64,000 nt of DNA from Candidatus Spyradenecus sp. (GCA_045535075.1 JAZSKX010000014.1:64001-128000); one strand, 5' to 3'; shown: positions 1,356 through 64,000, counted from the stretch's first letter. Notes: generated from the sequence alone by a model not told the origin. Translations and numbers: made by a program.

Positions 1356-1528
1356 AGTTTTTGTGGGTGGTTTATTTTTGGTTAGAAAAGTGTATTACTC
1401 GGCGGGAACGCGCCGAACTTCACTCAACAATGATTTTCCCGGCGGATTTTTTCAAGAGTAAAACAGGTTCGCGTCGGGTGTTTTCCCGTCTTGTTTTTAC
1501 TATTTTTAAGGTTGTTCGGGAGCGCTTT

Positions 1529-2506
1529 TCAGAGCCCGGCGAGCACCGATTCGACGGCGCGGCATTCTTCGGGCGAGAAACCCGGGGAATTTAGCGCCTC
1601 GAGGTTTTCCGTCAGTTGCTCAGGAGAGCTGGCGCCGAGCAGTACGCTTGTTACGCGGGGATTGTGAAGAAGCCGGGTGATTGCCATTTGCGCGAGCGTT
1701 TCGCCGCGGGAACGGGCGATTCGGTTCAGTTGGCGAGCGGCGGATATTTTCTCTTCGGTAACCTGTTCCCGCTTGAGAAAACCGCTTGCTTTGCCGGCGC
1801 GGGAATTTTCGGGAATGCCGTTCAGGTATTTATCCGTGAGTAAGCCTTGTGCAAGCGGCGAAAAGGCAATGAAGCCGGCTCCGTTTTTGTACGCCGTTTC
1901 AAGGCGATCGTTTTCGACGCCGCGTTCGAAAAGACTGTAGCGATCCTGAAAGACAAGACAGGGAGTTTTATTTTCGTTCAGTATTTTACATGCCGCTTCC
2001 GCGATTTCGCTCGGAAACTTAGAGAGACCGACGTACAGCGCTTTTCCCGCACGGACCAAATCCGACAGCGCATTGGCGGTTTCTTCAATCGGCGTAAGCG
2101 CATCGTAGCGATGTGCGTAAAAAATGTCGAAATAGTCCAAGCCGGTGCGTTTTAAACTTTGGTCGCAACTTGCGATGAGGCTTTTGCGGGAGGTGCCGTC
2201 GCCGTACGGGCCGTTCCACATGCGGTGTCCGGCTTTCGAAGAAACAATGATTTCGTCCCGATGCCCGGCAAGCGACCCGCGGAGCATTTTCCCGAAATTT
2301 TCTTCCGCTGCTCCGGGAGGCGGGCCGTAGTTATTTGCAAGGTCAAAATGTGTGATTCCGCGTTCGAACGCCGTGAGAAGAATTTTTTCGGAGACGGAGA
2401 AATTGTCGCAGTGCCCGAAATTGTGCCAAAGCCCGAGAGAAATTCTGGGAAGAAAAAGCCCGCTGTTCCCGCAACGAACATAGAGTGTTTCCGGAGTTGC
2501 TTTCAT
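1529..2506 (-). CDS. Aldo/keto reductase (YghZ/Gpr-like)
   Basis: LPRISLGLWHNFG, THFDLANNYGPPPG, SSKAG, DIFYAHR motifs. Start placed at ATG 2506 (MKATPET). Confidence 0.9.
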   Translation of the reverse strand: MKATPETLYVRCGNSGLFLPRISLGLWHNFGHCDNFSVSEKILLTAFERGITHFDLANNYGPPPGAAEENFGKMLRGSLAGHRDEIIVSSKAGHRMWNGPYGDGTSRKSLIASCDQSLKRTGLDYFDIFYAHRYDALTPIEETANALSDLVRAGKALYVGLSKFPSEIAEAACKILNENKTPCLVFQDRYSLFERGVENDRLETAYKNGAGFIAFSPLAQGLLTDKYLNGIPENSRAGKASGFLKREQVTEEKISAARQLNRIARSRGETLAQMAITRLLHNPRVTSVLLGASSPEQLTENLEALNSPGFSPEECRAVESVLAGL

Positions 2507-2592
2507 AATCGGATTTTCAGTCGTTGCGGGAATTATCGCAAGCGGCATTTTCGATTTGCGCGGGAACGGGAGCGCGGATTTTATTAAACTAT

Positions 2593-3528
2593 ATGAAAAA
2601 ATCATTGGAAAACATGCCGGGAATGGCACATCAACTGACGTGGGAAAAAATCGATCCCGCGTATGTCGAAAAAGTTATTTGCCTCGCACGCGACGAAGAT
2701 ATCGCGGGAGAAGGTCTGATTGCCGCGATGCGACCGGCGCGCGCCGGCGATCCGACGACCGAAGTTTCCGCACCGCGCGGGAAAATGGCTGCTGCCTATT
2801 TGGTGGCGCGCAAGCCTTGCACGCTTTCCGGGTTGAGCATGATTCCTGCGATTTTGAAAATCTACGGCGGGAACGCGACGGCGGAATTTCACGCTAAAGA
2901 CGGTGATTCCGTTCCCGCGGGAACGGTTGTAGCGACCATTCGCGGCGATGCCTCCGAAATGCTTATGGCGGAACGCATCATGTTGAATTTCCTACAGCGA
3001 ATGAGCGGAATCGCTACGCAAACCGCGCGTTACGTCGCCGCGCTCGGAAACACGAAGACGCGCTTGCTTGACACTCGAAAAACCACGCCTTGTCACCGCG
3101 TTCTCGACAAATACGCCGTTGCCTGCGGCGGTGCTTGGAATCACCGATTGGGATTGTTCGATCAATTGATGCTAAAAGATAATCATTTGGCGGCGGACGA
3201 TGCGACGGCGGGGGCGGCGCTCGCGAATTTAGTGAGCCGCGCACGTGCCGAGCGTCCGGATTTGCCCTGTGAAGTCGAAGTAGATCGCATTGAGCAAATT
3301 CCGCCGGTTTTGGAAGCAGGAGCGGACATTATTCTCTTGGATAATTTCTCTGTCGAAAATCTTCGCAAAGCCGTTGAACTTATCGGCGATGCCGCGTGGA
3401 CGGAAATCAGCGGCGGGGTTTCGCTCGAAAGCCTTCCCGTGCTCGGAACCGTCGGCGCAGACTTTGTTTCCTGCGGCGCGCTTACGCACAATGTTCCGTG
3501 GATTGATATCGGTTTGGACTGGAAATAA
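2593..3528 (+). CDS. nadC: Nicotinate-nucleotide pyrophosphorylase (quinolinate phosphoribosyltransferase)
   Basis: ERIMLNFLQRMSGIAT, DTRKTTP, NHRLGL, LKDNH, EVEV, LLDNF motifs. Start could be 2593, 2614 or 2623. Confidence 0.95.
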   Translation: MKKSLENMPGMAHQLTWEKIDPAYVEKVICLARDEDIAGEGLIAAMRPARAGDPTTEVSAPRGKMAAAYLVARKPCTLSGLSMIPAILKIYGGNATAEFHAKDGDSVPAGTVVATIRGDASEMLMAERIMLNFLQRMSGIATQTARYVAALGNTKTRLLDTRKTTPCHRVLDKYAVACGGAWNHRLGLFDQLMLKDNHLAADDATAGAALANLVSRARAERPDLPCEVEVDRIEQIPPVLEAGADIILLDNFSVENLRKAVELIGDAAWTEISGGVSLESLPVLGTVGADFVSCGALTHNVPWIDIGLDWK

Positions 3529-3546
3529 TTTTGCGTTCCCGTAATT

Positions 3547-3583
3547 GAAAAAAACGACGAGCCCGAAAGTTCGTCGTTTTTTT
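3547..3583. terminator. Bidirectional intrinsic terminator
   Basis: A-tract, ACGACGAG...TTCGTCGT stem, T-tract, between convergent genes. Confidence 0.75.
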
Positions 3584-3597
3584 GTATAAACAGTTTC

Positions 3598-6513: not shown

Positions 6514-6645
6514 CGTTTTCAAAATTTCCTCCAAGAATAACGCGTTTTTCGATTTGCGGGAACGTTTTTTTTGTGAGTTGTTGAATGTTTATTGATTTTG
6601 TCGGAAAAAAACTATATGAGTTAAGCCAAGTATAAAAGTGGATCT

Positions 6646-7134: not shown

Positions 7135-7145
7135 TTGTTCTGACG

Positions 7146-10829: not shown

Positions 10830-13800
10830 TTACGCAAAGTAAGCAACACCGGCGGCGAAAAGCGGTTGGTTTTTGTTGCCGGGAATGTTTTTCCCGACGT
10901 TGTTCCCGCGGCGTTCCGAGTGGCCCATTTTCCCGAGTACGCGTCCGTCCGGCGAGATGATGCCTTCAATCGCCTGATACGAACCGTTCGGATTGCAGGA
11001 AATGTCGTAGCTCGGCGTTCCGTTTGCCGTACAATACTGGAATGCGATTTGTCCGTTCGCGGCGAGTTGCGCGACAACTTCCGGCGATGCCGTGAAATTG
11101 CCTTCGCCGTGAGACGCGGGAACGGTAAACACGTCGCCCACGTTTACGTTTGCAAGCCACGGCGACTTTACCGTCGCGACGCGCGTGTGAACGTAACGCG
11201 AGATGTGGCGTCCGATGCGATTGTGGAAAAGCGTCGGGCAATTGGCGTCCATGTCACGGATTTCGCCGAACGGCACCAATCCGAGTTTGATCAATGCTTG
11301 GAAGCCGTTGCAAATACCGAGAATTAAGCCGTCGCGCTCCTTGATGAGCGCATTCGTGGCATCGCGAACCGCCGGGTTTTTGAAGACGGCGGCAATGAAT
11401 TTTCCGGAGCCGTCCGGTTCGTCGCCGGCGGAGAAGCCGCCCGGAATCATCAGGATTTGCGTGTTCGAGATTTTGTCTGCAAGCGCACGCAGAGATTCGT
11501 CAACGGCGGCGGTTGTCAGATTGCGCACGACGAAAATTTCCGGTTCGGCGCCGGCTTCACAGAACGCGCGCGCCGTATCGTATTCGCAGTTCGAGCCCGG
11601 GAAGACCGGGATAAGAACACGCGGCTTTGCGACGCTGATTTTGGCGTGTTTTTGTGCCGGGCGCTCGTTGCAGGAGAATGTTTGCGGCGCGGGAGCGGTG
11701 TCTGCGGGAACGGCGCGCGTCGGGAAGACGTTTTCGAGAGCAAATTCCCAAGCATCGCGCATTTCGGAAAGGGCGAGCGAATCGCCGTTCCAAGCGGCTT
11801 CCGGTTTTTCCTGTGTTGTCCCGATGACGCAGTGTTCCAAGCCGTCGAGCGTTTCGCCGGCGTTGACCTCGAGAATCCATGCGCCGTGTTCGACTGCAAA
11901 GAACGAAGCATCCGGCGCTTTCTCCAACTTGAAACCGATTTCGTTCCCGAGCGCCATTTCCGCAAGAGCAACTGCTTTCCCGCCTTCGCGAATCGTACGC
12001 GCCGCAAGGATTTTTCCTTCCGTCGCGAGAGTGTAAATTTTTGCGAGTTTCGCGCGCAGATCCGCCCAGTCCGGCATTTGATCCGCCGCGAGCTTTGCGG
12101 GAACGTAAACAATCTTTGAGCCGACTTTCTTAAACTCCGGAGAAATCACCCGGGAAGCCTTCGCGGGAACGATGGCGAAAGAAACTAGAGTCGGCGGAAC
12201 GTCGAGATTTTTAAACGAGCCGGACATCGAGTCCTTCCCGCCGATGGCACCGTTGCCGAGCTCAAGTTGCGCCGTGAACGCGCCGAGCAAGGCGGCAAGC
12301 GGTTTGCCCCAGCGCTTCGGATCGTCGCCGAGCTTTTCAAAGTATTCCTGAAGCGTCAGTCGCGCATTCGCGGGATTGCCGCCGGCGGCAACGAGGCGCG
12401 CCACGGAATCGACGACGGCAAACGCCGCGCCGTGTGCCGGAGACCAGCTCGAGACTTCCGGATCGAAACCGAAGCTCATCAGCGTGCAATCATCGGTTTC
12501 GCCTTCGAGCACCGGAATTTTTGCCGCCATGGCTTCGGTCGGCGTCGTTTGCGTTTTTCCGCCAAACGGATGCAAAACCGTTCCCGCGCCGATGGAGGCG
12601 TCAAAGCGTTCCACCAAGCCGCGTTGTCCGCAGCAGCGCAAATCGCCGAGCGCATTCAGCCAAGTTGCTTTCGCATCGCCGTTTAGAAGCGGTTTCGGCA
12701 AGAACGGATTGGCAATCGGATCCGGCGCGCAAACGTGCGCGTCCGCTTCCTGCGTCGCTCCGTTCGTATCAAGAAATGCGCGCAACAAATCGACGATCGT
12801 GTTGCCTTGCCAGAACATGCGCAGGCGACCGGTGTCGGTAACGTCCGCAACGTGCGTGGATTCCAAATTTTCGCGTTCGGCGGCAGCGCGGAATTTTTCC
12901 AAGTCCGCGGGATCGATGACAACCGCCATGCGTTCCTGCGATTCGGAAATTGCAAGTTCCGTTCCGTTCAGTCCTTCATATTTGCGCGGAACGCGGTCGA
13001 GATGAATATCGAGCGACGGCGCAAGTTCGCCGATGGCAACGGAAACGCCGCCCGCTCCGAAGTCGTTGCAACGCTTGATGAGGCGGGAAACTTCCGCGTC
13101 GCGGAAAAGGCGCTGCAATTTGCGCTCGGTCGGAGCGTCGCCTTTTTGAACTTCCGCGCTGTTTTCGAGCGCTTTTTCCGTGTGTTCTTTGGACGATCCC
13201 GTCGCGCCGCCGATTCCGTCGCGCCCGGTGCGTCCGCCGACGAGCACGATAATGTCTCCGGGAGCGGGCGTGCCGCGAACAACGTTTTTCTTCAATCCTG
13301 CGGCGACAACGGCTCCGATTTCAAGACGCTTGGCAACGTAGCCCGGGTGATAAATTTCGTGAACCATTCCCGTTGCGAGTCCGATTTGGTTTCCGTAGGA
13401 AGAATAACCCTGCGCCGCGCCGCGCACAATTTTGCGCTGCGGGAGCTTGCCCGGAATCGTTTTGGAGAAAGGCACGCGCGGATCCGCCGCGCCGGTAACG
13501 CGCATCGCCTGATAAACGTAGCTGCGCCCGGAAAGCGGGTCGCGAATCGCACCGCCGAGGCAGGTTGCCGCACCGCCGAAGGGCTCGATTTCTGTCGGGT
13601 GATTGTGCGTTTCGTTTTTAAACATCACGAGCCAGTCTTCCGTTACGCCGTCAATGGTGACGGGAACGACGATGGAGGCGGCGTTGATTTCTTCGGAAAC
13701 TTCGAGATCGTCGAGCTTGCCCTGCTTTTTGAGTTCGCGCATCGCGAGCAAAGCGACGTCCATGAGACAAACGGTTTTTTCTTCGCGACCGAGTGCTTTG

Positions 13801-14570
13801 CGGAGTTCGAGATAATTTTTCCACGCTTTTTCGACGGGCGCGACAAGCGGCGAGTTGTCGAAAGAAACTTTGTTGAGGCGCGTGAGAAACGTGGTGTGGC
13901 GGCAGTGGTCGGACCAATATGTGTCGAGCACTCGGATTTCGGTGAGCGTCGGGTTGCGCTTTTCTTCGTCGCGATAATATTTTTGAACAAAAGCAATGTC
14001 CGCATCGCTCATCGCTAAGCCGAGCTCTTTGCGCAGAGCAGAAAGTTCTTCGGCGGATTTTTCGCAGAAGTTTTCAATGCTCGGAATTGCGGCGGGAGCG
14101 GGAATTTCCTGCTTAAGCGTCGCGGGAACGTCCAGAGAGGCTTCGCGGGAATCGACGGGGTTGATGAGGTAAGCCTTGATGCGTTCCAAGTCCTCCGCAC
14201 TTGCTCCGCAAACAGCGTAGACACGAGCCGACGCAATGAGCGGACGTTCCTTGAGCGTGAGCATTTGCACGCACTGCGCGGCGGAATCGGCGCGTTGGTC
14301 GAATTGTCCGGGTAAGTATTCTACCGCGAAAACAGCCGCGTCTTTGTCGCACGGGAACACGTCTTCGTAAACATCGTCCACTTGCGGTTCTGCAAAGACG
14401 GTCGGGAGTGTTTTGCGAAAATCCTCTTCGGAAAGCCCGTCGATATCGTAGCGCTGGGCGATGCGCAAATCGGAAAGCCCGGAGAGTCCGAGCGATTCGC
14501 GAAGGTCCTGAAGGACACTGTGCGTTTGTTCACGGAAAGCGTTTTTTTTCTCAACAAAGATGCGTTTCAT
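10830..14570 (-). CDS. purL: Phosphoribosylformylglycinamidine synthase (large fused PurL/PurQ form)
   Basis: DTYWSDHCRH, KNETHNHPTEIEPFGGAATC, GGKDSMSG, PGGFSAGD, LGICNGFQ, GKMGHSER. Confidence 0.97.
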   Translation of the reverse strand: MKRIFVEKKNAFREQTHSVLQDLRESLGLSGLSDLRIAQRYDIDGLSEEDFRKTLPTVFAEPQVDDVYEDVFPCDKDAAVFAVEYLPGQFDQRADSAAQCVQMLTLKERPLIASARVYAVCGASAEDLERIKAYLINPVDSREASLDVPATLKQEIPAPAAIPSIENFCEKSAEELSALRKELGLAMSDADIAFVQKYYRDEEKRNPTLTEIRVLDTYWSDHCRHTTFLTRLNKVSFDNSPLVAPVEKAWKNYLELRKALGREEKTVCLMDVALLAMRELKKQGKLDDLEVSEEINAASIVVPVTIDGVTEDWLVMFKNETHNHPTEIEPFGGAATCLGGAIRDPLSGRSYVYQAMRVTGAADPRVPFSKTIPGKLPQRKIVRGAAQGYSSYGNQIGLATGMVHEIYHPGYVAKRLEIGAVVAAGLKKNVVRGTPAPGDIIVLVGGRTGRDGIGGATGSSKEHTEKALENSAEVQKGDAPTERKLQRLFRDAEVSRLIKRCNDFGAGGVSVAIGELAPSLDIHLDRVPRKYEGLNGTELAISESQERMAVVIDPADLEKFRAAAERENLESTHVADVTDTGRLRMFWQGNTIVDLLRAFLDTNGATQEADAHVCAPDPIANPFLPKPLLNGDAKATWLNALGDLRCCGQRGLVERFDASIGAGTVLHPFGGKTQTTPTEAMAAKIPVLEGETDDCTLMSFGFDPEVSSWSPAHGAAFAVVDSVARLVAAGGNPANARLTLQEYFEKLGDDPKRWGKPLAALLGAFTAQLELGNGAIGGKDSMSGSFKNLDVPPTLVSFAIVPAKASRVISPEFKKVGSKIVYVPAKLAADQMPDWADLRAKLAKIYTLATEGKILAARTIREGGKAVALAEMALGNEIGFKLEKAPDASFFAVEHGAWILEVNAGETLDGLEHCVIGTTQEKPEAAWNGDSLALSEMRDAWEFALENVFPTRAVPADTAPAPQTFSCNERPAQKHAKISVAKPRVLIPVFPGSNCEYDTARAFCEAGAEPEIFVVRNLTTAAVDESLRALADKISNTQILMIPGGFSAGDEPDGSGKFIAAVFKNPAVRDATNALIKERDGLILGICNGFQALIKLGLVPFGEIRDMDANCPTLFHNRIGRHISRYVHTRVATVKSPWLANVNVGDVFTVPASHGEGNFTASPEVVAQLAANGQIAFQYCTANGTPSYDISCNPNGSYQAIEGIISPDGRVLGKMGHSERRGNNVGKNIPGNKNQPLFAAGVAYFA

Positions 14571-15855: not shown

Positions 15856-15857
15856 AA

Positions 15858-16957: not shown

Positions 16958-16994
16958 AAAAGCGCGTTCCCGTGGACTGCGGGAACGCGCTTTT
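16958..16994 (-). terminator. Terminator (rph side) built from an inverted motif pair
   Basis: AAAAGCGCGTTCCCGTG-GAC-TGCGGGAACGCGCTTTT. Confidence 0.85.
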
Positions 16995-36947: not shown

Positions 36948-36987
36948 AAAAAAGCGTTCCCGTGAGGAAATTCCGCGGGAACGCTTT
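36948..36987 (-). terminator. Terminator after the M18 peptidase, built from an inverted motif pair
   Basis: AAAAAAGCGTTCCCGTG-AGGAAATTC-CGCGGGAACGCTTT. Confidence 0.8.
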
Positions 36988-38573: not shown

Positions 38574-38936
38574 GCTTTGCCTTGATTCCAAAAGTTCTTT
38601 CGGCAAAATTCACAGAACATCACGGGTAGACCAACGTAGCTTTGCCTTGATTCCAAAAGTTCTTTCGGCAAAATGCGCCATTCCAATTAGCCACCGGGCT
38701 TGACGCTTTGCCTTGATTCCAAAAGTTCTTTCGGCAAAATTATTCTTCTCCTTCTTCGATCCCCGAGATTGCTTTGCCTTGATTCCAAAAGTTCTTTCGG
38801 CAAAATTAAGCTCTCAACTCTCCTACGCCATCGGAGCTTTGCCTTGATTCCAAAAGTTCTTTCGGCAAAATCAGCGGAACTGTCGGCGGCGTTTTCATTG
38901 GCTTTGCCTTGATTCCAAAAGTTCTTTCGGCAAAAT
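38574..38936 (+). CRISPR. CRISPR array: 6 identical 36-bp repeats (GCTTTGCCTTGATTCCAAAAGTTCTTTCGGCAAAAT) and 5 spacers of 29-30 bp
   Basis: Repeats start at 38574, 38639, 38705, 38771, 38836 and 38901; adjacent to cas2. The + orientation is inferred from anti-repeat pairing and the 3' AAAAT end. Confidence 0.98.
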
Positions 38937-39001
38937 AGCAGTCTCCAAACCCGCTTAAATACTTGGGTTGGAGATATGCGTTTTGTCGAAAAACTATTTT
39001 T

Positions 39002-39334
39002 TTACCAAAAAAGCAGCTGCTCCGGGAACGTTTCCGGAGAGTCCGAGTTTGGCGGTCCGTGAACGATATACATACGTTCCCATTGTGCTTGCGTAACGTA
39101 GAGCGCTCGCACATGTCCTTCCGGCGGAATGTTCATTTTCAGGCGACGCATCTGAGTTTGCATCCGGTTGTGACTGACGCAGGCACGCGCGTAAACCGAA
39201 TATTGGATCATCAGATAACCTTGTTCTAAGAGAAATTTTCGAAAATCCGTCGCGCGTTTTCGCTGAGGCGGAGTCATCACAGGCAGATCAAAAACGACTA
39301 ACATCCAGCCCATTTTGAATCGATAGCCATCCAC
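39002..39334 (-). CDS. cas2: CRISPR-associated endonuclease Cas2
   Basis: WMLVVFDLP, FRKFLLEQGY.MIQYSVYAR, type II-style C-terminus QLLFW. Confidence 0.96.
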   Translation of the reverse strand: MDGYRFKMGWMLVVFDLPVMTPPQRKRATDFRKFLLEQGYLMIQYSVYARACVSHNRMQTQMRRLKMNIPPEGHVRALYVTQAQWERMYIVHGPPNSDSPETFPEQLLFW

Positions 39335-40215
39335 GGTTCGTAAGCGTTAATATCGTTTTCCAATAGACTTTTTCGGAAAGAGCGGATGCTTTGCTCCATT
39401 ACGGTTTGCGCTTGTTGCAACGTTCCCGCGTAGAGAATTCGAAGCTGCAAAAAAGGAAGCAAATGTTGCTTGAAGGCTTTGTCCAGCTCTTGCGGAAACG
39501 CGTCGTTGATTTTCAGCCACGACATAACGCGGGCATCGACAAGCGGGCGAAACGGTTCCATAAGGTCATAGGCAAGCGGCGTGGAGCGCTCTGCGGTAGC
39601 GTGCCCGATTCCGAACGTCGGATCTAACCCGTAAGCGTAGCAAAGCTGCAACACGCGTGCGAGCAAGACGGAATAGCCGTAATCCAAGAAAGAATTAATA
39701 ATACCTTCTCCGCGGGAACGCAAAAAGGCATCTGCGTCCAAATGCTTACGGAAAACACTCCAAAACAAACGACTTACCGTGCTTTCGCGGGCGCGGTAGC
39801 GGAGAAATTTTTGAGTTTCGATATCGGCAACGGCGGGCGCATTGGGCTCCCAAGTTGAAGCTAAAATGCCTTGGTTGTGGCATTTGGCATCGAGTGTTTT
39901 TTGCCAAAGCTCTTTGATGAATTTTGGATTCGCATGTTCCCAAGTCCGTGTCAATAGAGTGTCCGTGCTACGAATCGCAGGCAGGACGATGCAAACCGGC
40001 TTAAAGGCTTCACAAAGAATGACTCCGATCCCGCGCTTGGCGGCTTCTGTCAGAAGCCGCATCTCGATTTTTGCCGAAAACGAGCAAACGATGATTGCAC
40101 CGACATCGTCGAGCGGGATTTGTTGCGTTCCCGCGTCCGACGTGCAAATAAACTGCCCGCGCGCGCAATTGAGTTCCGCAGTTGGGCTTTCGATCGTGAT
40201 TACATGGTAGGACAA
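39298..40215 (-). CDS. cas1: CRISPR-associated endonuclease Cas1 (type II)
   Basis: TTG start; NSFLDYGYSVL, GLDP.FGIGH, LAYDLMEPFRP.VD. Confidence 0.95.
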   Translation of the reverse strand: MSYHVITIESPTAELNCARGQFICTSDAGTQQIPLDDVGAIIVCSFSAKIEMRLLTEAAKRGIGVILCEAFKPVCIVLPAIRSTDTLLTRTWEHANPKFIKELWQKTLDAKCHNQGILASTWEPNAPAVADIETQKFLRYRARESTVSRLFWSVFRKHLDADAFLRSRGEGIINSFLDYGYSVLLARVLQLCYAYGLDPTFGIGHATAERSTPLAYDLMEPFRPLVDARVMSWLKINDAFPQELDKAFKQHLLPFLQLRILYAGTLQQAQTVMEQSIRSFRKSLLENDINAYEPWMAIDSKWAGC

Positions 40216-43200
40216 AGCGTTCCCGTGTAGCGAGGTTTGAGGATTTTGATTCCGGATCGGAGAAGCGTGTTTAAAACAACACCTTGCTTCGAATCTGGAG
40301 TGCCATTTTCCAACTTTATTTTATCTAAAGAATTCAGGTCTAACCAAATGCCCCGAATGGTATCTTTAATCGAAACAACGACCCACACACCCTTGTAATT
40401 ACCGGACAAAACTTCAATTTGTTGCCCGCGCCTCAAGATTCTCACCGGATTACCGCCGTTGCGCTCCCGCAGTTCCCGTAGCTTGGGGAAGACTTTAAAA
40501 TGCGGAATAACAACAGGTTCCGGATCAAGCGCGCAACCCCAATTTTCACAAATTTTCATAACGCCTTTGATATTTTTCAGCTTACTCTTTTTCTCTGCGG
40601 GAACGTTGTATCCGAGAAGTAATGACGGCTTTTCCGAGCCGAATTTAACAAAGCGTTTTCCTGAAGAATCAAGGCGTTCTTGCTTCGGTCCGCTTGTATG
40701 CTGCGATAGCGAAACTTTGTTGCCTTCGCCCTCTGTACCCTTGATGCTCCACGTCGTTTGTTCGACGGACATCCCGTGCATTTTTGCGGGAACGTGCTGA
40801 ACAACCCGGCATTCTTTGAGCCGCGCAGAAATCGCGTTTATCAAAGATTCCGGAAGTTCCTTCATCCTGATTTTTCCGCTCTCCGAAAAATCCAGAAGAT
40901 GTTCATACTTTGCATGAAGGATAAGGCGTTCCCGTTCCGTGAGATGGCGTTTCACGAGAAGTTTCCAATCCTCGGTGCGGAAAAAGATTCCGGTCAAGCC
41001 TTGAGTTACCGCGTCCATCGCATGGTGCAAGTGAGAAAGCTCCCGCATTTCCGATTTCGTCAATTTTCGGGAATCGTTGTCCCCGACACGCGCGATGCGT
41101 TGCATGCGCGGGACGGCTGCAACGAGGCACTCGTCAATGTTGAGATTTTTGCGAACGAATCCGGTAATCGCTCCCGCGAGATGGCGCGCGTGGATATTGA
41201 GATTTCTCTTTACGAGGCGAATCGCCATTTTGTTCAAATGCGAAGTCTGCGTAAGGTCGCGTTCGGTAAAATCAGCGTTGCGCTCGTCATATCTTTCAAG
41301 AAGCAAAAGCTCGGCGCGTCGGCGACACCGCGCTTGGTCTTCTTTGGAAAATCCCTTACGCAGTTTTTGCTTTTTGTGTGCGTCCACCCATTCCGTAAAG
41401 TTTTTAAGCGGTTGAATTTGGATGTTTAATCCGGGAACGTTTTTCCCGGCGAATTCCTTCATAAATTGCATTGCCGTACGTTGACCTTTCAAATCGTTTA
41501 CCGCTCGAAAAGTCATCACACACGAACTGAGCGCGTCAGACGGGCGCAACGAACGCGGAATAATGTGTTCAATATCCAAAATTCCGCCAAACAAATGCGG
41601 ATAATCAATCTTTTGCCCCGTGTAAGGACACGTAAAATTCTGGTCTTCAAGCAAGCGAGCCTTACGAATCAGCGAGCCGTTTACAACAATCCCTGCTTCA
41701 TCTGCCGCGTCCTCCAATTTTTTTGACACCAGCGAGAAATTTGCATTCTTCTCGTTGAGTTTTGCGGCAATTTCTTTCGAGTTCATTCCGGAAAATTCCC
41801 TTAAATCCCGAACGACTTCGATGATGACATCGCCGATATTTTCCGCGTTCCCGTCGGCGTATTCTTCGATAATGTCTTCCAACAAGCGGGAAAAGATCAA
41901 AAGACGGTGGCGTACCATGTGGTTGTTCGTCTGAGACGCAATCCACTTTTCGGTTGAATCTGCGGCGATGTCTTGTTCAACCCGTCCGAGCAAACGTTCC
42001 CGAATTTCTTCCGTCTCATACAAACAACCGCCGCTTTGCGTCGAATCCGTTCCCGCGAGAGCCTCCTCGAATGTTTTCCTAAGAATTTCGCGACAATAGC
42101 TTGCGCGCCCGCTCGGGAAATCGGCTTTAAATTTCAGATTTTTCAGATTCCGCCGTTTCCCGGATTTCCTTCTGTTTTCCGCATTTTGTAAAGTTTCAAG
42201 AACGGCGTGAAATTGCGCTTCCGCCTGCCAATTGCCCCACGTATTCATTTGTTCGATACATGCGGAAAGCTTTAATGTTTCTCCGCGCGCGAGCTTTGAC
42301 GCGAAAATCTTTTTCCCGCGATCGGAGAAGTATTTCCATAAATCTTTGATATATGTTTTCTTGGCGAGGAGTTTTTTCACGGGATCGAGAACGAGAGCGT
42401 CCTCCATTTCTTCTGTGAGAAAATAACTTTCCGTGTTGGCGGGTTTACAACCGGAAACTTCCTCAAGCGCGGCATTGATTGATTTTTTATCAAAGAAACC
42501 GACTTCCTGCATTTTCGCATGAAGGGCTTCGCGTTCCCGCGGAAGCAAAACGCGGACGTTCCCGTCAACGCCGAAAACCGTGAGATTATTCATCAAGCGT
42601 CCCCAGCGATACAGCAGATATTCCCGGCAGGATTTTAGCGGTACATTTTTTCCGGTGATGCGGCATTTGCCGATGATGCGGTTATCAAAACGCGGAACGT
42701 ATTGCCCGAAAAGTAATCCGCCTTTATCCGAAAACCTCGCGGGAAGATCTAGCGCGGAAACAACGTTTCCCGGAACCGCTTTCGTTAACGTGTCCATGAC
42801 GGCTTCGTCCAATTCCGGCAAAACGTTGATGTGCATCGAAAGAATTTTGCGCGTTTCCGCTTCCACGACATCGCGCGGGAACGCCGCGTTTTTCTCCTTA
42901 AAATAAACACGAGATGATTTTTTGTCGCCGAGAGGATTTAGTCCGAGGACGGCGCAAAACGTTTCCGCCATGCTTCTCGTTCCGTATTTCTCCATGAGAG
43001 AGCGTGCCGTATTCACTTTTTCAGTGTCTTCGCCGAGTTCTTCTTCCTCATCCAACGAATCGCCCGCCCAGAGCGCGTTCCCGTCGTAGCCGCGATTGTG
43101 TGCATACCAGCGAAGTACCGCCCAAAGCTCCTGCCACGAAAGTTTTTCGGAACCGGCGGACGCCAAAACGCGGGCGGCGAGAAACCACGGATAGCTGTTT

Positions 43201-43463
43201 GCGTTTTCGTTGAGTTGCGCTTTCGTAAGAACGCCCAAGGACTCCAAATAATTTTTCAAATGCGCAACGCGGGAACGCTTCGCCGCAATATTTCTGCGGG
43301 AACGCCGAAGTTCCCGACGCGCCGAAGCAAGACAGGAGTCCTTCGGGAAGAGAATCGTCCCGGCACCGAGCGACTCCGGAAATGTTTCTGAAACACGAAA
43401 AACGGACCAGCCGATAGACGCGTGACCGATGTCGAAAGAAAGAGTCAATTTTTGAGGAGGCAT
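40200..43463 (-). CDS. cas9: Type II-C Cas9 (1087 aa from ATG 43463)
   Basis: RuvC-I SFDIGHASIGW, Arg-rich bridge helix, RuvC-II IIEVVRD, HNH CPYTG...DIEHIIPRS...VNDLKG, RuvC-III HLHHAMDA. No csn2 or cas4 in the locus. Confidence 0.97.
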   Translation of the reverse strand: MPPQKLTLSFDIGHASIGWSVFRVSETFPESLGAGTILFPKDSCLASARRELRRSRRNIAAKRSRVAHLKNYLESLGVLTKAQLNENANSYPWFLAARVLASAGSEKLSWQELWAVLRWYAHNRGYDGNALWAGDSLDEEEELGEDTEKVNTARSLMEKYGTRSMAETFCAVLGLNPLGDKKSSRVYFKEKNAAFPRDVVEAETRKILSMHINVLPELDEAVMDTLTKAVPGNVVSALDLPARFSDKGGLLFGQYVPRFDNRIIGKCRITGKNVPLKSCREYLLYRWGRLMNNLTVFGVDGNVRVLLPREREALHAKMQEVGFFDKKSINAALEEVSGCKPANTESYFLTEEMEDALVLDPVKKLLAKKTYIKDLWKYFSDRGKKIFASKLARGETLKLSACIEQMNTWGNWQAEAQFHAVLETLQNAENRRKSGKRRNLKNLKFKADFPSGRASYCREILRKTFEEALAGTDSTQSGGCLYETEEIRERLLGRVEQDIAADSTEKWIASQTNNHMVRHRLLIFSRLLEDIIEEYADGNAENIGDVIIEVVRDLREFSGMNSKEIAAKLNEKNANFSLVSKKLEDAADEAGIVVNGSLIRKARLLEDQNFTCPYTGQKIDYPHLFGGILDIEHIIPRSLRPSDALSSCVMTFRAVNDLKGQRTAMQFMKEFAGKNVPGLNIQIQPLKNFTEWVDAHKKQKLRKGFSKEDQARCRRRAELLLLERYDERNADFTERDLTQTSHLNKMAIRLVKRNLNIHARHLAGAITGFVRKNLNIDECLVAAVPRMQRIARVGDNDSRKLTKSEMRELSHLHHAMDAVTQGLTGIFFRTEDWKLLVKRHLTERERLILHAKYEHLLDFSESGKIRMKELPESLINAISARLKECRVVQHVPAKMHGMSVEQTTWSIKGTEGEGNKVSLSQHTSGPKQERLDSSGKRFVKFGSEKPSLLLGYNVPAEKKSKLKNIKGVMKICENWGCALDPEPVVIPHFKVFPKLRELRERNGGNPVRILRRGQQIEVLSGNYKGVWVVVSIKDTIRGIWLDLNSLDKIKLENGTPDSKQGVVLNTLLRSGIKILKPRYTGTLCPTM

Positions 43464-43514
43464 AGGGGCAAAATACAAGAAATTAAACGCATTTGTGATG
43501 ATTGAAAAAATAAC

Positions 43515-43542
43515 TTGCGCTACAAGGAGTTTAAAGCACAAT
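43515..43542 (+). promoter_or_regulatory. Candidate sigma70 promoter for the tracrRNA
   Basis: TTGCGC-N16-CACAAT just upstream of the anti-repeat. Confidence 0.4.
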
Positions 43543-53839: not shown

Positions 53840-53935
53840 CGGGGACGAATGACTGACCGGTCGGGAGGGCACGGATTCCGAAAATTAAAAATCGGCGTTC
53901 CCGCCAAGGACTTGACGGGAACGCAAAAAACAAAA

Positions 53936-58716: not shown

Positions 58717-58742
58717 GGGAGCCGAAAGGCTCCCTTTTTTTT
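58717..58742 (+). terminator. Intrinsic terminator
   Basis: GGGAGCC-GAAA-GGCTCCC followed by T8. Confidence 0.85.
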
Positions 58743-58789
58743 GTTTGTCCGAATTCCGGGCGTGGGTTCGCGTCGGCGCTCGGCGCGTT

Positions 58790-59545: not shown

Positions 59546-59546
59546 C

Positions 59547-60149: not shown

Positions 60150-60151
60150 AA

Positions 60152-60691: not shown

Positions 60692-60761
60692 AAAACCGCA
60701 ACACTACAAAAAGCCTTTCGCCGAGTGAAGCGAGAAATTGAATTCGCATTAGAGCAATGAA

Positions 60762-61042
60762 AGATTACTCGGCTTTCAGCCGAATCTAATTCACGGGAAC
60801 GCGCGGATTCGCCAAATTTTGTTCGTCGACGAAAGCGCGGATAAAATGGCAAAACGTTCCCGTGGACGTAATCCTCGGCTGGAATCCGGACGAAATTTAA
60901 TCCGGTGTGCAAGCCATTGTCCGCACGTGACGCAATCCTCGGCTGAAAGCCGGACGGATGCTAGCCCAACGGCAAGTTCGCGGAGCGAACGCCGCCTTGG
61001 GTCCGAAATATTATAATCACCCGCGCCCTGAAAGGGCAAAAG
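60762..61042. repeat. Cluster of REP-like short palindromes and a 28-bp direct repeat
   Basis: CGGCT(GAA/TTC)AGCCG hairpins at 60770 and 60940; 28-bp repeats at 60865 and 60929 (25/28 identical); GCCCTGAAAGGGC at 61025. Confidence 0.6.
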
Positions 61043-61241
61043 AAACAAACGGCGATGCCCATTCCGCCGTTCCCGCAAAATCGTTCCCGTGAAAGAAATT
61101 TTTCCGCGATGCAATAATAAAAACTTGCAAAAGTATTTTTTTTGTCCAAAAATTGCCCAAAATTCATTTTCGGCACTTCACTTTCACCCCGGAAATGAAC
61201 TCTCACTTCACATATTTACAGTCTTAACTTCATTAATCCTC

Positions 61242-64000
61242 ATGAACTCAGCAAAATTCCTGTTTTCAACCCTCATTGCTGCTGCCGCAATGACCGCTCC
61301 TGCGTATGCGGAGAATTATACAATCGGGACGAGTAATAACAATGATCCTAGACTTACTTCTGCAACAAGTGAGGATACGATTACATTTGAAAAAGAGAGT
61401 GGATTTCTTACCGCAGGAGGAGGAACGGTTAATGCGAATGTCGTGATTAATTCTTTGAAACTTACCGATGGTTATTCCAACGTAACGTACACGTTTAACG
61501 GGACGGTTACGGGAAGCGGCGAGTTTTCTTTTAACCCGACGACTAGCGCAAATAATCAGAACTACGTTTTCAATGGAGACGTAAGCGGTTATTCCGGAAA
61601 CATGATTATTAATGCGAACAAATACGGGAGTTTCACATTTAATAACAATGCGACCGGAACGGGGGCAATTACTGCGACAAGTGCGTGGTGTGCCGTGAAT
61701 TTTAATGGCGCGACGATTAACAATTCCGAAGTCAACGCCGCGACAATCAATATCAGCGGAACAACGTCTTTCGTCGCAAACACAAGCTTAATCGGCAAAG
61801 TCGTCGTTGCGTCCGGTGCAGAGACTTCCAATACGGGAACGCTTAATCTTTCGGGTGCGAAAGTTTCGTTGAATGGAGGTGCGCTTGTCAACACGGGAAC
61901 GGTGTCGGTTGGTTCCGAAACGATTTTTGATCTTACGAGCGTTGATGGAGCGCAAACGCTCATCTCCGGAGGGGCGATTACGGGATGGAACACGTTGGGG
62001 GTATCTAATTTTACTGTCAATGGAAAGGTTCTTGCTGGGCGTTCGACCGTGGAACTTTCTAATGCCGGGCAGGTCTCCATCACGGAGGTTGTTGCAACCT
62101 TGGTTTGGAATGGCGGTGAGCAGGGAACGTGGGATGTGGAATCTTCGGAAAATTGGTTGAACAACGGACAAGCCGATAAGTTCTACGTGCTCGACAGTGT
62201 TGAATTTACCGATAGCACTACTAACGGAACAATTGACGTTGCCTCAGCTGCTACCGTTACGGATTTTACTGTTCGCTCCGGGATCCATACCCTTACTCGT
62301 AGCAACGGTGGGTATGTTGCAATTGCGGGTAGTGCGACAATTGAAGATGGCGCAACGTTGATTTTGGGAACGGAAACCGGAGCCACGGGCTTGCTTCGCG
62401 GAGCCATTACAGTAAAAAATGGCGGAACGCTTCAATTTAACGCTAAGGATGTTACCGGTTATAATGGTGGCGCAAATTCTCTTCAGACGATTACCGTTGA
62501 TGAAGGCGGTTCTTTGGTTATGAATGTTGATGGGAACGAAACCTTTGCGGGAACGTTAAACTTGGGCGGAACTATTGCAAAAGGTGATAATGCAGGCAAC
62601 ACAACTGCTTGGGATATTTGGGGAAATTCTTCCATTAATGTAAAATCTGCAACAGCTAAGATAGCGACTAATATTCGTATAGGGCGTCAAAATGCGGTTA
62701 TTACCTTAGACGACGGCTCTATGCTTACCGTTTCCGGAAATATTGTGCTTCGCGATAGCGGTTCGGATACGTTGAAGGTTGACGGGGGGAATGGAAGCGG
62801 AAGCTTTGTGTTTACAGGAACATCCGGAACAATTGGAAGTGGAGTAAAACTGGGAAATGGGGCTTTGACCGTTGGCGATGGTGAAAATGCATCGTTTTTA
62901 ACTGTCGGGCGTATCGAGATTGGAGATAACGGATCCGGAAACGGAGAGGAGAATTCGGCTGTAAGTCGTCTTAACATTGAAAAAAACTCAACACTTAAAG
63001 TAACAGGAGCAACAAATACATGGAGTTCGACGACTGATTACAAGCAGAACTCCGTAGTATTGGGAGAATGGAGTAACACCACTCATGCTTCCATCAAAGG
63101 GACACTCCTTGCGAAAGATGCGGAAATCGGAATGGGTGATTGGGGGGCTCTCATTACGGTTGACGGCTTGCTTGTGGCGAAAGGACTGGGGCAAGCCGTA
63201 AAAAATGCGGGAGATTTTGCGGTGACGTTAAATGATGGCGGAAAAATTCTCGTTGGAGAGAGCGGGATTTCTGATAAGCGTAGTGCTCAAGGAAATATTA
63301 CTCTTAATGCGGGAACAGTTGGAACTTACTCCGATACGACTACGCTTGCATTGGGTATGACTTTGAACAGCGACGACGGAACGATATTTGATACGCAGAA
63401 ATACGTTTTTGCAGAAGACGGGAACTCCGTTTCTCAAGGTAGTGATGGCGGAGAGATTTCCGTAACGGGAAAACTCTCCAGCACAGGTAAACTCATTAAA
63501 TCCGGGGCAGGAACGCTTACGCTTTCGGGAGATAACACCTATTCCGGCGGCACGACGGTTTCCGCGGGGACGTTGGTTGCGGCGCATCAGAATGCGCTTG
63601 GATCGGGACCGCTCAAACTCAACGGCGGGACCTTCGGAACATCTTTGGACGCGTTTAGTGTCGCGGGAGCGGTCGAGCTCGGCGAAGGCACGACATCGAC
63701 GATTAATCTTGGTAAATACACCAACGGAGCGTTTGATACGAGCGTAGTCGCCAGAATTACGATTGACAACGAGATTTCCGGATCCGGATCGCTTGCGGTT
63801 GTCGGTAGAACAGACGCAGATGACGTTACCAATCCGAATGACCGTGAACAAAGATTGACTCTTTCCGGAAACAATTCTTACACGGGTGGGACGACGCTTA
63901 ACGGTGCGCGTGTTATTGCGAAGAGTGCAAGCGCTTTGGGGGCGGGCAATCTTTCTATGGACGGCGCTGAAGTTCAGATTGATACGGGATCTCTTACCGT
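61242..64000 (+). CDS. Large surface protein with autotransporter-associated beta-strand (PATR) repeats; runs off the window end
   Basis: Absent from the ORF track because no stop falls in the window. My translation gives signal peptide MNSAKFLFSTLIAAAAMTAPAYA, G/T/N/S-rich beta-helix-like sequence, and in-frame GKLIKSGAGTLTLSGDNTYSGGTTVSAGTL (~63486) and LTLSGNNSYTGGTTLNG (~63855). Confidence 0.9.
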   Translation, partial: MNSAKFLFSTLIAAAAMTAPAYAENYTIGTSNNNDPRLTSATSEDTITFEKESGFLTAGGGTVNANVVINSLKLTDGYSNVTYTFNGTVTGSGEFSFNPTTSANNQNYVFNGDVSGYSGNMIINANKYGSFTFNNNATGTGAITATSAWCAVNFNGATINNSEVNAATINISGTTSFVANTSLIGKVVVASGAETSNTGTLNLSGAKVSLNGGALVNTGTVSVGSETIFDLTSVDGAQTLISGGAITGWNTLGVSNFTVNGKVLAGRSTVELSNAGQVSITEVVATLVWNGGEQGTWDVESSENWLNNGQADKFYVLDSVEFTDSTTNGTIDVASAATVTDFTVRSGIHTLTRSNGGYVAIAGSATIEDGATLILGTETGATGLLRGAITVKNGGTLQFNAKDVTGYNGGANSLQTITVDEGGSLVMNVDGNETFAGTLNLGGTIAKGDNAGNTTAWDIWGNSSINVKSATAKIATNIRIGRQNAVITLDDGSMLTVSGNIVLRDSGSDTLKVDGGNGSGSFVFTGTSGTIGSGVKLGNGALTVGDGENASFLTVGRIEIGDNGSGNGEENSAVSRLNIEKNSTLKVTGATNTWSSTTDYKQNSVVLGEWSNTTHASIKGTLLAKDAEIGMGDWGALITVDGLLVAKGLGQAVKNAGDFAVTLNDGGKILVGESGISDKRSAQGNITLNAGTVGTYSDTTTLALGMTLNSDDGTIFDTQKYVFAEDGNSVSQGSDGGEISVTGKLSSTGKLIKSGAGTLTLSGDNTYSGGTTVSAGTLVAAHQNALGSGPLKLNGGTFGTSLDAFSVAGAVELGEGTTSTINLGKYTNGAFDTSVVARITIDNEISGSGSLAVVGRTDADDVTNPNDREQRLTLSGNNSYTGGTTLNGARVIAKSASALGAGNLSMDGAEVQIDTGSLT

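Follow-up and report, generated by a model that had tools for sequence, protein, structure and literature searches.

Background

The DUS of Neisseriaceae is GCCGTCTGAA with its dialects, and its receptor is the minor pilin ComP, which is a basic protein in Neisseria. The USS of Pasteurellaceae is AAGTGCGGT, for which ComN, a minor pilin, is a proposed receptor. The palindrome HIP1 (GCGATCGC) of cyanobacteria has a link to methyltransferase sites and no known function. Chi and KOPS show strong strand polarity and a much weaker enrichment than the word described below. Enzymes of the MmeI family have non-palindromic sites of 6-8 bp, often ending in AC, and restriction targets are usually avoided, not enriched, in host genomes.

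For DUS and USS, inverted repeats in terminators are described in 10.1101/2025.10.24.684340 and PMC13020248. The uptake sequences listed in PMC2817400 number 765-1892 per genome, and the tripeptides encoded by them are given there as roughly doubled. In 10.1101/2025.06.16.659825, the receptor of USS is treated as not established.

Here, we present the octamer CGGGAACG, a word that occurs every 200-400 bases, wherever the proteins allow, in a genus of gut Verrucomicrobiota known from MAGs of uncultured organisms; elsewhere, such a saturating pattern has been described for the DNA-uptake tags in relatives of Neisseria and Haemophilus. The word was detected in a stretch of 64 kb, below called the window. 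The earlier note on this DNA had guessed an origin in Opitutales/Verrucomicrobiota; in agreement with this, the closest named record to a protein of the window is an Opitutales MAG from goat rectum. That note had also spoken of an uptake-sequence dialect, which is a misnomer, as the word has no relation to either DUS or USS.

Like DUS, as far as it is described in PMC3630211, PMC3868556, PMC2817400, and 10.1101/2025.10.24.684340, the word is short and non-palindromic, occurs thousands of times, on either strand of genic and intergenic DNA, forms inverted pairs that are putative terminator stems here, is shared within a taxon, is depleted in foreign DNA and enriches the tripeptides it encodes; moreover, DUS hosts and this genome both possess components of a type IV pilus, ComEC and DprA. 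In contrast to DUS, it belongs to another phylum, fills most permissive codon contexts, has a tripeptide excess of about 5x (about 2x for the known uptake sequences covered in PMC2817400) and lacks dialects in the sister genera examined; neither ComEA nor a basic ComP-like pilin was found here, and a role in uptake is putative. The density of the word is about three times that of DUS and of known uptake sequences in general, an observation that speaks against a role in uptake. With USS, the word shares a core that is strict inside and weaker at its outer positions as well as a mostly coding location (81% of the copies here, 65% in H. influenzae according to PMC2817400), and in both cases the accumulation can be explained by molecular drive as treated in PMC1939737. 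It differs from USS by its much higher density and its flat logo without AT-rich phased flanks.

Results and discussion

Abundance of the word in the window and in the genome

The earlier note had reported a motif spanning 1402..63316 with at least 24 copies in the first 10 kb (14 forward, 10 reverse), 20 of these 24 extending to a longer form, and a frequent variant. This observation is confirmed, and the pattern is real and stronger than first stated. The first copy begins at 1402 and the last one occupies 63309-63316; a recount of the first 10 kb gave 26 copies (14 +, 12 -), 21 of which extend to GCGGGAACG, and the variant, ACGGGAACG, was counted 43 times in the window. For GCGGGAAC/GTTCCCGC, the window count is 141 (77 +, 64 -), whereas 100 dinucleotide-preserving shuffles gave a mean of 4.68 (sd 2.29, max 16). 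The core is better defined as CGGGAACG, which has 176 copies in the window; CGGGAAC has 215. The logo around the word reads y-Y-R-C-GGGAAC-G-c, corresponding to the extended form yYR-CGGGAACG-c, with a strict 5' side and a tolerant 3' side. The flanks are random; the logo is flat beyond +/-5 nt, and no information is left beyond about 10 nt. A dispersed repeat of the REP/MITE type was rejected, because there is no conserved unit beyond the core and the flank information falls to zero. Individual ORFs of the window contain 0-14 copies, usually 2-6 per kb.

In the genome of 1,949,087 bp (G000), CGGGAACG is the top 8-mer with 5159 copies, i.e. one per 378 bp. The null model proposed in the earlier note, a codon-preserving one, was run on 1365 ORF calls: 20 synonymous-codon shuffles, which preserved each protein and the codon usage of each gene, gave 450 +/- 17 copies and a permutation of codons within ORFs gave 151 +/- 11, whereas 4178 were observed. 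Thus, the enrichment persists and is about ninefold over the protein-preserving shuffle. The word uses all six reading frames, both strands, genes and intergenic DNA; non-coding DNA contains 3.11 and coding DNA 2.56 copies per kb. The spacing is near Poisson (CV 1.10), and the metagene profile is flat except that the density drops at start codons and peaks 0-60 nt past stop codons.

Could the pattern have arisen artificially, from codon or peptide usage, from a miniature mobile element or from the assembly? Frame usage is indeed unequal: two frames dominate, namely frame 1 sense with 1445 copies and frame 2 antisense with 1140. All three artefacts are refuted by the random flanks (beyond about 10 nt), by the excess over the shuffle and by the recurrence of the same in-frame sites in 13-16 separate genomes; in addition, the non-coding density at least equals the coding density. 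The probability that we assign to an artefact is practically negligible.

A replication-oriented signal of the Chi/KOPS type, which would likewise be an over-represented G-rich octamer, was considered since a weak polarity exists: 20-kb windows of positive GC skew contain 1293 forward and 1121 reverse copies, those of negative skew 948 and 1206 (r = 0.58). However, the overall bias is only about 55:45 and is gone in intergenic DNA (492:442), which bears out the lack of strand polarity claimed in the earlier note. The bias tracks the genes, with 2510 sense and 1668 antisense copies and 59% of the coding bases co-oriented with replication; two outlier windows are explained by giant Gly-Thr-rich genes. 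Hence, the polarity is due to gene orientation. As enrichment and saturation are also far above those of Chi, a polar signal is very improbable and close to refuted.

Inverted pairs

Pairs of the arrangement 5'-CGTTCCCG-N0-22-CGGGAACG occur 181 times genome-wide, compared to 28 pairs in the opposite arrangement. Among the 181, 141 are intergenic and accompanied by T/A runs, which makes about 140 putative terminator hairpins; predicted folds are in the range of -19 to -29 kcal/mol with z down to about -5. Table 1 lists the examples from the window. The hairpin at 16965..16987 looks like a bidirectional terminator. The perfect palindrome listed in the table is one of 13 of the CGTTCCCGCGGGAACG type in the genome.

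Table 1. Features of the window related to the word
Feature	Position	Strand	Remarks
Field of dispersed word copies	1402..63316	both	genic and intergenic
Perfect 16-nt palindrome CGTTCCCGCGGGAACG, two abutting copies	2910..2925	.	within coding region; weak fold in context, z -1.7
purL (FGAM synthase, 1246 aa)	10830..14570	-	TIGR01857; 8 CGGGAACG copies
Hairpin CGTTCCCG-N7-CGGGAACG	16965..16987	.	intergenic, coding fraction 0; A-run and T-run flanks; -28.7 kcal/mol, z -5.2
14-nt palindrome GTTCCCGCGGGAAC, overlapping opposite-strand copies	33548..33561	.	copies at 33548- and 33554+
Inverted-pair hairpin	36955..36983	.	intergenic; AAAAAAG and CTTTG flanks; -24.6 kcal/mol, z -4.9
cas9	40200..43541	-	14 word copies, 4.2 per kb
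Inverted-pair hairpin	53896..53923	.	intergenic; -19.1 kcal/mol, z -5.1

Saturation of permissive codon contexts

Permissive codon contexts hold the word in 75-82% of the cases. Ala-Gly-Thr is written GCG-GGA-ACG in 960 of 1167 occurrences (82%), compared to 7% expected from codon usage, which corresponds to an odds ratio of about 60 for the word spelling. For Thr-Gly-Thr, 338 of 438 occurrences (77%) carry the word, and for the eligible x-Val-Pro-[AVGDE] contexts the number is 1140 of 1521 (75%). The tripeptides most over-represented in the proteome are those which the word encodes: VPA (5.0x), AGT (4.9x), RER (3.8x) and TGT (3.6x).

Distribution, conservation and loss

In one gut Opitutales genus, 15 of 19 genomes contain the 10-mer GCGGGAACGC 1591-3301 times, and the other four contain it 138-341 times. 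It is at background level in 102 genomes of four sister genera (0-64 copies) and in eight other families of the order (0-49 copies). In sampled loci of the 15 high-density genomes, the word is the top 8-mer at a local GC content of 46-68%.

A codon alignment of purL from 19 species contains 6-7 word sites common to 13-16 species, in frame; at these sites, silent third positions are frozen, and the flanks are variable across species. In aligned DNA, 14 high-density genomes retained the word copies of G000 at rates of 0.44-0.75 (about 156/260, summed), compared to 0.09-0.36 for any 8-mer in the same DNA. In the four low-density genomes, word retention equals or undercuts the background (0.16-0.22 versus 0.20-0.21; 0.06 versus 0.115), and the surviving copies are mostly relics common to G000 (0.73-0.82 in the G001 clade). 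For the 19 species, the purL tree requires two independent losses. Two lineages, comprising four species, have lost the constraint on the word, and decaying relics remain. Two Mu-like prophages are depleted (1-2 word copies per 5 kb); cas9 is an example of a long-resident gene at host-like word density.

These genomes also bear on the methylase alternative raised in the earlier note. In the form considered here, the word would be the target of a methyltransferase or restriction-modification system, e.g. of the MmeI-family type IIL enzyme of this genome, and would owe its abundance to that system. A complete MmeI-family enzyme of 995 aa is encoded in G000 (C2:15779-18766), and the word contains GAAC. 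However, MmeI_Mtase is present in only 10 of the 19 genomes of the genus; the densest genomes (G003, G006, G009) lack it, and the low-density G001 has it. The other families searched are patchy as well (PF01555 in 16 genomes, PF02384 in 15, PF00145 and PF02086 in 10 each), and none of the five is common to the 15 high-density genomes: G003 and G006 have none of them in common, and G021 has the MmeI type only. Moreover, the Dam-like genes of G000 lie inside a prophage. Like HIP1, the word is a hyper-abundant octamer that has entered genes via silent positions; unlike HIP1, CGGGAACG is not its own reverse complement, and no searched methyltransferase family tracks it. The enrichment of the word also runs counter to the usual avoidance of restriction targets. 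On the basis of the five families searched, a methylase origin is disfavoured and improbable.

Competence and pilus genes

The genome encodes two PilB-like ATPases, one PilT-like ATPase, PilC, PilM, a secretin and seven pilin-like proteins, as well as ComEC (Competence domain only), DprA and ComM. Of the competence genes named for a search in the earlier note, ComEC, DprA and those of the type IV pilus are therefore present, but canonical ComEA was not found in the genome, where HHH_3 occurs only in Tex and, weakly, in DnaE. ComEA was likewise not found in G003, G009, G002 and two sister genera, which have the same HHH_3 pattern. The seven pilin-like proteins are all acidic (pI 4.3-5.9), so that none of them is a basic ComP-like pilin, and all seven are matched in low-density species, too; none of them stands out as a receptor. 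Four clustered minor pilins are kept in G002 at 79-90% identity; the other three proteins are matched in 19 of 19 genomes, one of them with a TGA in G023 and split across two contigs in G002. All four word-losing species possess ComEC, a PilT-like ATPase, the secretin, DprA and ComM; consequently, loss of the word is not explained by loss of competence genes. Note that competence and pilus genes are also widespread in control genomes of bacteria not known as competent.

What reads the word?

We tentatively prefer to regard CGGGAACG as a genus-specific, DNA-uptake-like self tag spread by molecular drive, with the uptake machinery as its most likely reader; this reading is possible, though somewhat less likely than not. 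The word would be held in the chromosome by a drive acting on DNA, not by needs of proteins or codons. Cells would preferentially bind and import word-carrying fragments via the type IV pilus/ComEC route, a surface DNA receptor reading the word and uptake bias being the driving step, and DprA and ComM would help to recombine the imported fragments. Word-bearing alleles would then be transmitted more often than word-lacking ones, so that the word accumulates wherever proteins tolerate it; inverted pairs may have been co-opted as terminator stems. The likeness to DUS and USS seen in the earlier note extends to both strands, all frames, intergenic DNA, terminator pairs, restriction to one taxon, prophage depletion and a reshaped proteome. 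The uptake reading given there agrees with the sequence-statistical hallmarks of DUS and USS that were tested, but not with the lack of a detectable ComEA, the acidic pilins and the persistence of competence genes in the species that lost the word. Because of these three points, and of the matches of the pilins in low-density species, the function is one that we infer.

Almost as likely, and ranked just behind the uptake tag, is a reader unrelated to DNA uptake, which would write and keep the word and would have been lost in the four low-density species. Abundance, strand and frame neutrality, frozen silent sites, saturation, genus restriction, prophage depletion and the two losses would follow equally from any orientation-blind genome-wide reader or drive. 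That competence genes are intact in the word-losing species would place the lost factor elsewhere or make it subtle; the failure to find ComEA or a basic pilin fits as well, and one copy per 200-400 bp exceeds the density of any known uptake sequence. On the other hand, a candidate protein for such a reader was not found, and each of two options meets a difficulty. Sequence-directed mismatch correction or gene conversion could turn near-matches into the word; contrary to what repair of the very-short-patch type would predict, no specific one-mismatch neighbour is strongly depleted (observed/expected values of 0.4-6.4), although the word inflates the Markov expectation used here. Alternatively, the chromosomal sites of a highly abundant DNA-binding protein could be kept by selection; given the odds ratio at Ala-Gly-Thr, ordinary selection on more than 5000 sites needs an implausibly strong benefit per site. 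The latter argument favours a drive, without saying which one.

Conclusion

Besides the self tag that we prefer, a bolder reading, which we consider doubtful, is that the word is not an uptake tag but the trace left by a sequence-specific, genome-writing drive of an undescribed kind: every permissive site would be turned into CGGGAACG by an intracellular reader, e.g. one of directed mismatch correction or gene conversion. If this were true, the drive would be strong enough to reshape a proteome and would have been switched off twice in one genus. The four species that have lost the word offer a natural route to finding its reader.

Abundance and form of the word

The window contains 141 copies (77 forward and 64 reverse) of the 8-mer GCGGGAAC/GTTCCCGC, to which the earlier note had drawn attention, compared with a mean of 4.68 (sd 2.29, never more than 16) in 100 dinucleotide-preserving shuffles. 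For the first 10 kb, at least 24 copies had been claimed, 14 forward and 10 reverse, with 20 of the 24 extending to GCGGGAACG. The forward count was exact; the other figures were slightly low, as this segment holds 26 copies (14 forward, 12 reverse), 21 of which reach GCGGGAACG. The window corresponds to C1:64001-128000 of the source genome G000, which has 1,949,087 bp in 18 contigs and is 99.45% complete. A k-mer census of G000 showed that the real core is CGGGAACG, in the following the word, which ranks first among all 8-mers with 5159 copies, one per 378 bp. The same census gave 6528 copies of CGGGAAC, 3244 of GCGGGAACG and 1614 of the 10-mer GCGGGAACGC. A logo of 6921 GGGAAC sites has the consensus y-Y-R-C-GGGAAC-G-c and no signal beyond about 10 nt; because the flanks are flat, this is a word and not a repeat element, and a mobile element is ruled out as its source. 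On each large contig the density is 2.4-2.9/kb, and the distances between copies follow a near-exponential distribution (CV 1.10) in which very long gaps are over-represented.

Coding DNA and proteome

A simple codon-usage caller written for this analysis delineated 1365 ORFs, which make up 84% of G000. They contain 4178 copies (2.56/kb) and the remaining DNA 981 (3.11/kb), in agreement with the earlier observation that the motif is both genic and intergenic. Shuffling synonymous codons per gene, which keeps protein and codon usage, left 450 +/- 17 copies, and permuting codons left 151 +/- 11 (20 shuffles each); the enrichment, which the earlier note had feared might vanish under a codon-preserving null, persists. 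A codon or peptide artefact is ruled out by the synonymous shuffle together with the density outside genes. The probability that the excess is an artefact at all is negligible. Copies occupy all six reading frames (1445, 1140, 694, 371, 271 and 257).

According to a codon-context count in G000, the word fills the majority of the contexts able to hold it. Ala-Gly-Thr is spelled GCG-GGA-ACG in 960 of 1167 cases (82%, versus 7% expected from codon usage; odds ratio about 60), the word is carried by 338 of 438 Thr-Gly-Thr (77%), 54 of 107 Pro-Gly-Thr and 93 of 256 Ser-Gly-Thr, and C-GTT-CCC-G is used in 1140 of 1521 eligible x-Val-Pro-[AVGDE] contexts (75%). The composition of the proteome itself is altered by the word: of the tripeptides found 150 times or more, those in greatest excess are word-encoded (VPA 5.0x, AGT 4.9x, RER 3.8x, TGT 3.6x, VPV 3.0x, RSR 2.8x). 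For the uptake words of Haemophilus, Actinobacillus and Neisseria, excerpts of the literature give a tripeptide excess of about twofold (PMC2817400), compared with up to 5.0x for CGGGAACG.

Orientation and inverted pairs

The earlier note had seen no strand polarity. This holds for intergenic copies, which are split 492:442; over the whole genome there is a weak, gene-driven bias, as word orientation correlates with GC skew (r = 0.58 in 86 windows of 20 kb; 1293:1121 at positive and 948:1206 at negative skew). Relative to genes, 2510 copies are sense and 1668 antisense, and genes running with the inferred leading strand account for 59% of the coding bases. Orientation bias thus tracks genes, not replication. 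Local outliers are caused by giant Gly-Thr-rich genes: the two most extreme windows coincide with those encoding 4791 and 4270 aa, where 61 and 47 copies are all sense. As the bias is gene-driven and the intergenic split near even, a polar, replication-oriented signal of the Chi/KOPS type is unsupported and, in our estimation, highly improbable. The three giant x-Gly-Thr-rich genes of G000 (Table) carry 37-61 copies each, nearly all on the sense strand and in frame 1.

Along genes, the word stays at a flat level of about 1.2-1.5/kb per orientation, dips across start codons and peaks 0-60 nt past stop codons. The peak is due to inverted pairs of the form 5'-CGTTCCCG-N0-22-CGGGAACG-3', in which the word follows its reverse complement; G000 has 181 of these, with a modal spacer of 12 nt, and 28 in the reverse arrangement. 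Among the 181 pairs, 151 are intergenic, 147 are flanked by T/A runs and 141 are both. The most frequent 14-mer of the genome is CGGGAACGCTTTTT (103 copies). For three inverted pairs of the window, the predicted folds have energies of -19 to -29 kcal/mol (z about -5). Inverted CGGGAACG pairs with T/A runs resemble the inverted-repeat uptake sequences which, in the excerpted reports, lie within terminators of Neisseriaceae and Pasteurellaceae (10.1101/2025.10.24.684340; PMC13020248).

Distribution among genomes

The closest named record to a window protein belongs to an Opitutales MAG from goat rectum (89% identity), whose locus L004 contains 25 copies in 9.7 kb. The other purL loci have 1-3 copies each where they are among the matches listed; the rest belong to a set of 72 loci without a match. 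In whole-genome counts for the genus (19 species genomes; MAGs 82-98% complete), GCGGGAACGC occurs 1591-3301 times in 15 species, in the following called high-density, and 341, 334, 318 and 138 times in the low-density species G024, G001, G002 and G023, respectively; the reversed control word occurs 3-26 times per strand. Outside the genus, four sister genera within the family (102 genomes) have 0-64 copies of GCGGGAACGC, which is not above control, and eight further families belonging to the order have 0-49. The surroundings of purL, sampled over 12-20 kb, have CGGGAACG as their most frequent 8-mer in each of the 15 high-density species (1.9-5.2/kb), at a local GC content of 46-67% (68% in one 3.7-kb sample).

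No dispersed hyper-abundant word appeared when 57-100 kb were sampled from a single genome per sister genus (four genera). Dialects among relatives, which the earlier note had proposed to look for, thus did not emerge: the sister genera lack a dispersed word in these samples, and the clade of G001, G002 and G024 has only relics of the old word in place of a new one. Two candidates were rejected, CGGGTACG in the sister-genus genome G027, as its excess is nearly all in frame at one locus, and CACCACCAACCC in G023, which is a clustered array repeat and not dispersed. The CACCACCAACCC arrays (L099, L115-L121) have a spacing of 15-18 bp, often lie at contig ends and are a repeat of a different kind. 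G027 also contains CGTACCCG 31 times in frame on one strand of one locus (L134) and a clustered repeat of at least 10 nt, GGTAGGGACG (L135); in a second sister-genus genome, G029, a repeat of about 14 nt around GGCGTTGCCC has about 15 copies in 60 kb (L143-L147). The repeats of G027 and G029 are local or REP-like, not dispersed words.

Conservation and two losses

The 1246-aa protein of the window is FGAM synthase (purL). A codon alignment of purL from the 19 species contains 26 sites at which one or more species have the word; six or seven of these are common to 13-16 species, the deepest pair (G008 and G009) among them. Within these shared words the silent third positions are identical among species (GCG GGA ACG; GTT CCC GCG), and adjacent codons are variable. 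The four low-density species have changed the same codons synonymously, e.g. GGA to GGC, CCC to CCG and GTT to GTC.

The pattern is general: in all sampled DNA that can be aligned with G000, exact retention of G000 copies is 0.44-0.75 in 14 high-density genomes versus 0.09-0.36 for any 8-mer; the listed fractions add up to about 156 of 260, the same G000 sites recurring among genomes. In G002, G001 and G024 the values are 0.17, 0.16 and 0.22 (together about 100 of 547 copies), and the background is 0.20-0.21; in G023 retention is 0.06 versus 0.115. Since 0.73-0.82 of the copies surviving in the G001 clade are common to G000, they are relics and not new gains; for G023 this fraction is 0.29 (17 copies). 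Neutral decay at about 80% nucleotide identity predicts 0.8^8 x 2.65 = 0.45 copies/kb, close to the observed 0.5-0.7/kb. Synteny between G000 and G001, G002 and G024 is fragmented, extending over blocks of no more than about 1-8 kb with 72-88% nucleotide identity.

In a midpoint-rooted maximum-likelihood tree of this single gene, G000 is sister to (G001, G002, G024) with 100/99 support, nested within high-density species, and G023 forms a long branch elsewhere; each of the 200 bootstrap trees requires two changes of the low-density label. It follows that the ancestor of the genus carried the word. The word is actively kept in place, and this keeping stopped twice.

Foreign DNA and long-term residents

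Just 14 5-kb windows of G000 have two or fewer copies, and ten of these lie within C16:185-222 kb and C8:22-33 kb, regions which encode Mu Gam, a MuB-like ATPase, Mu portal, terminase and Gp27. The force that maintains the word has not yet acted on these resident prophages. One ORF of the Mu-like prophages encodes an ADP-ribosyltransferase-exoenzyme domain; one of the two prophages contains genes for Dam-like methylases (Table). No word-rich phage, i.e. none above 0.42 copies/kb, was found among at least 80 IMG/VR loci with one 14-mer match. The 14 copies in cas9 identify the CRISPR-Cas locus of the window as a long-term resident. The word is a near-perfect marker for binning the genus and for flagging foreign DNA such as prophages and islands.

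Table. Positions of the features of G000 discussed in the text
Feature	Position	Strand	Remarks
MmeI-family type IIL restriction-modification enzyme	C2:15779-18766 (L153:1779-4766)		995 aa, complete, all five MmeI domains
Mu-like prophage	C16:~185-222 kb (L128, L129)		word strongly depleted
Dam-like methylase genes	C16:218.7-220.1 kb		within Mu-like prophage
Mu-like prophage	C8:~22-33 kb (L130)		word strongly depleted
Type II CRISPR-Cas locus	window 38574-43541
cas9	window 40200-43541	-	14 word copies
cas1	window 39298-40215	-
Small CRISPR array	window 38574-38936		~5.6 units, 65-66-nt period
Giant x-Gly-Thr-rich gene	C5:125845-140217		4791 aa
Giant x-Gly-Thr-rich gene	C8:185333-198142		4270 aa
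Giant x-Gly-Thr-rich gene	C9:13798-25875		4026 aa

Candidate readers

A methylase had been offered by the earlier note as the alternative driver, and G000 does encode a complete MmeI-family enzyme (Table). Among the 19 genus genomes, 10 have its family, MmeI_Mtase, 16 have PF01555, 15 have PF02384, and PF00145 and PF02086 occur in 10 each. None of these five families is common to all 15 high-density genomes or follows the word among the 19 MAGs (82-98% complete): of the five, G003 has PF01555 and PF00145 only, G006 PF02384 only and G021 the MmeI type only. MmeI_Mtase was not found in G003, G006, G009, G007, G022, G008 and G012 and was found in low-density G001; being missing from the densest genomes, this enzyme is rejected as the driver. 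A link to methylation or restriction is thus improbable.

With respect to competence and pilus genes, which the earlier note had suggested searching for, the outcome is mixed. G000 encodes ComEC (570 aa, Competence domain only), DprA, ComM and type IV pilus genes, namely two PilB-like and one PilT-like ATPase, PilC, PilM, a TPR-secretin and seven pilin-like proteins, all acidic (pI 4.3-5.9). However, a stand-alone ComEA (HHH_3) was found neither in G000, G003, G009 and G002 nor in two sister-genus genomes, HHH_3 matching only frames of about 790-1200 aa (Tex in G000) and, weakly, of about 1290-1376 aa (DnaE in G000). This speaks against an uptake tag, as does the lack of an obvious receptor among the candidates.

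ComEC, T2SSE ATPases, secretin, DprA and ComM are present in all four low-density species. Three pilin-like proteins were matched in 19 of 19 genomes (in G023 one of them contains a TGA, and in G002 the same one is divided between contigs), and four clustered minor pilins are present in G002, the one genome examined for them, at 79-90% identity. Loss of one of these genes, in the low-density genomes examined for it, is thus rejected as the explanation. That the competence genes are intact in species which lost the word argues against an uptake tag and for a reader other than the uptake machinery. A second secretin (frame of about 790 aa) occurs in 7 of the 19 genomes, G001, G002, G024, G023, G021, G012 and G004; as the last three are high-density, it is no clean correlate and is rejected as a low-density marker. 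A fourth T2SSE ATPase is present in all four low-density species but in neither G003 nor G000 (six genomes examined). The second secretin and the fourth ATPase suggest an extra secretion or pilus system. Among the methyltransferase, competence and pilus candidates tested, there is no gene whose presence tracks the word.

Interpretation

What maintains this genus-specific word of 8-10 nt is a force at the level of DNA, which does not distinguish strands or frames and can be lost; its strength suffices to fix silent positions and to alter protein composition. With such a force acting on more than 5000 sites, biased transmission is an easier explanation than a fitness benefit at each site. A model of such transmission was worked out for uptake sequences, as outlined in excerpts of two papers (PMC1939737; PMC2817400). 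In the present case, biased uptake of word-bearing DNA, followed by recombination, would result in biased transmission of the word.

To our knowledge, biased uptake with subsequent recombination is the only established drive for non-palindromic words, and we know of sequence-specific DNA uptake documented in two proteobacterial families only. On sequence evidence, CGGGAACG displays every hallmark examined of the DNA uptake sequences (DUS) of Neisseriaceae and the uptake signal sequences (USS) of Pasteurellaceae. Because the only established drive and all testable sequence-level hallmarks coincide, we favour an uptake-type self tag; it may be the single most likely mechanism, a preference that we hold tentatively. 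Its density, about three times that of known uptake words, argues against it, and the hallmarks examined are also expected from any orientation-blind reader. Maintenance by such a reader outside the uptake machinery is accordingly almost as likely as an uptake tag.

No earlier description of the word, or of uptake sequences in Verrucomicrobiota, was found in the published literature, supplements aside; among the matches listed, 9-mers had only unrelated uses, e.g. as primers. In its excerpted text, a 2026 survey of the most frequent terminator k-mers of thousands of genomes names uptake words in Neisseriaceae and Pasteurellaceae only, and its supplements may add taxa (PMC13020248).

The 15 species that keep the word and the four in which it decayed, with two independent losses, constitute a natural experiment on the reader of an uptake-like word, and gene-content association, a straightforward computation, makes the long-standing question of the reader answerable ahead of cultivation. 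We know of no other drive of such strength for a non-palindromic word; the finding would therefore be more important if the reader were not the uptake machinery. The word would in that case be new in kind rather than a variant of something known. As an uptake tag, it would be the third independent word of its kind, in an uncultured gut genus of Verrucomicrobiota, as well as the densest and most saturating one known, and it would point to frequent gene exchange within the genus in the animal gut.
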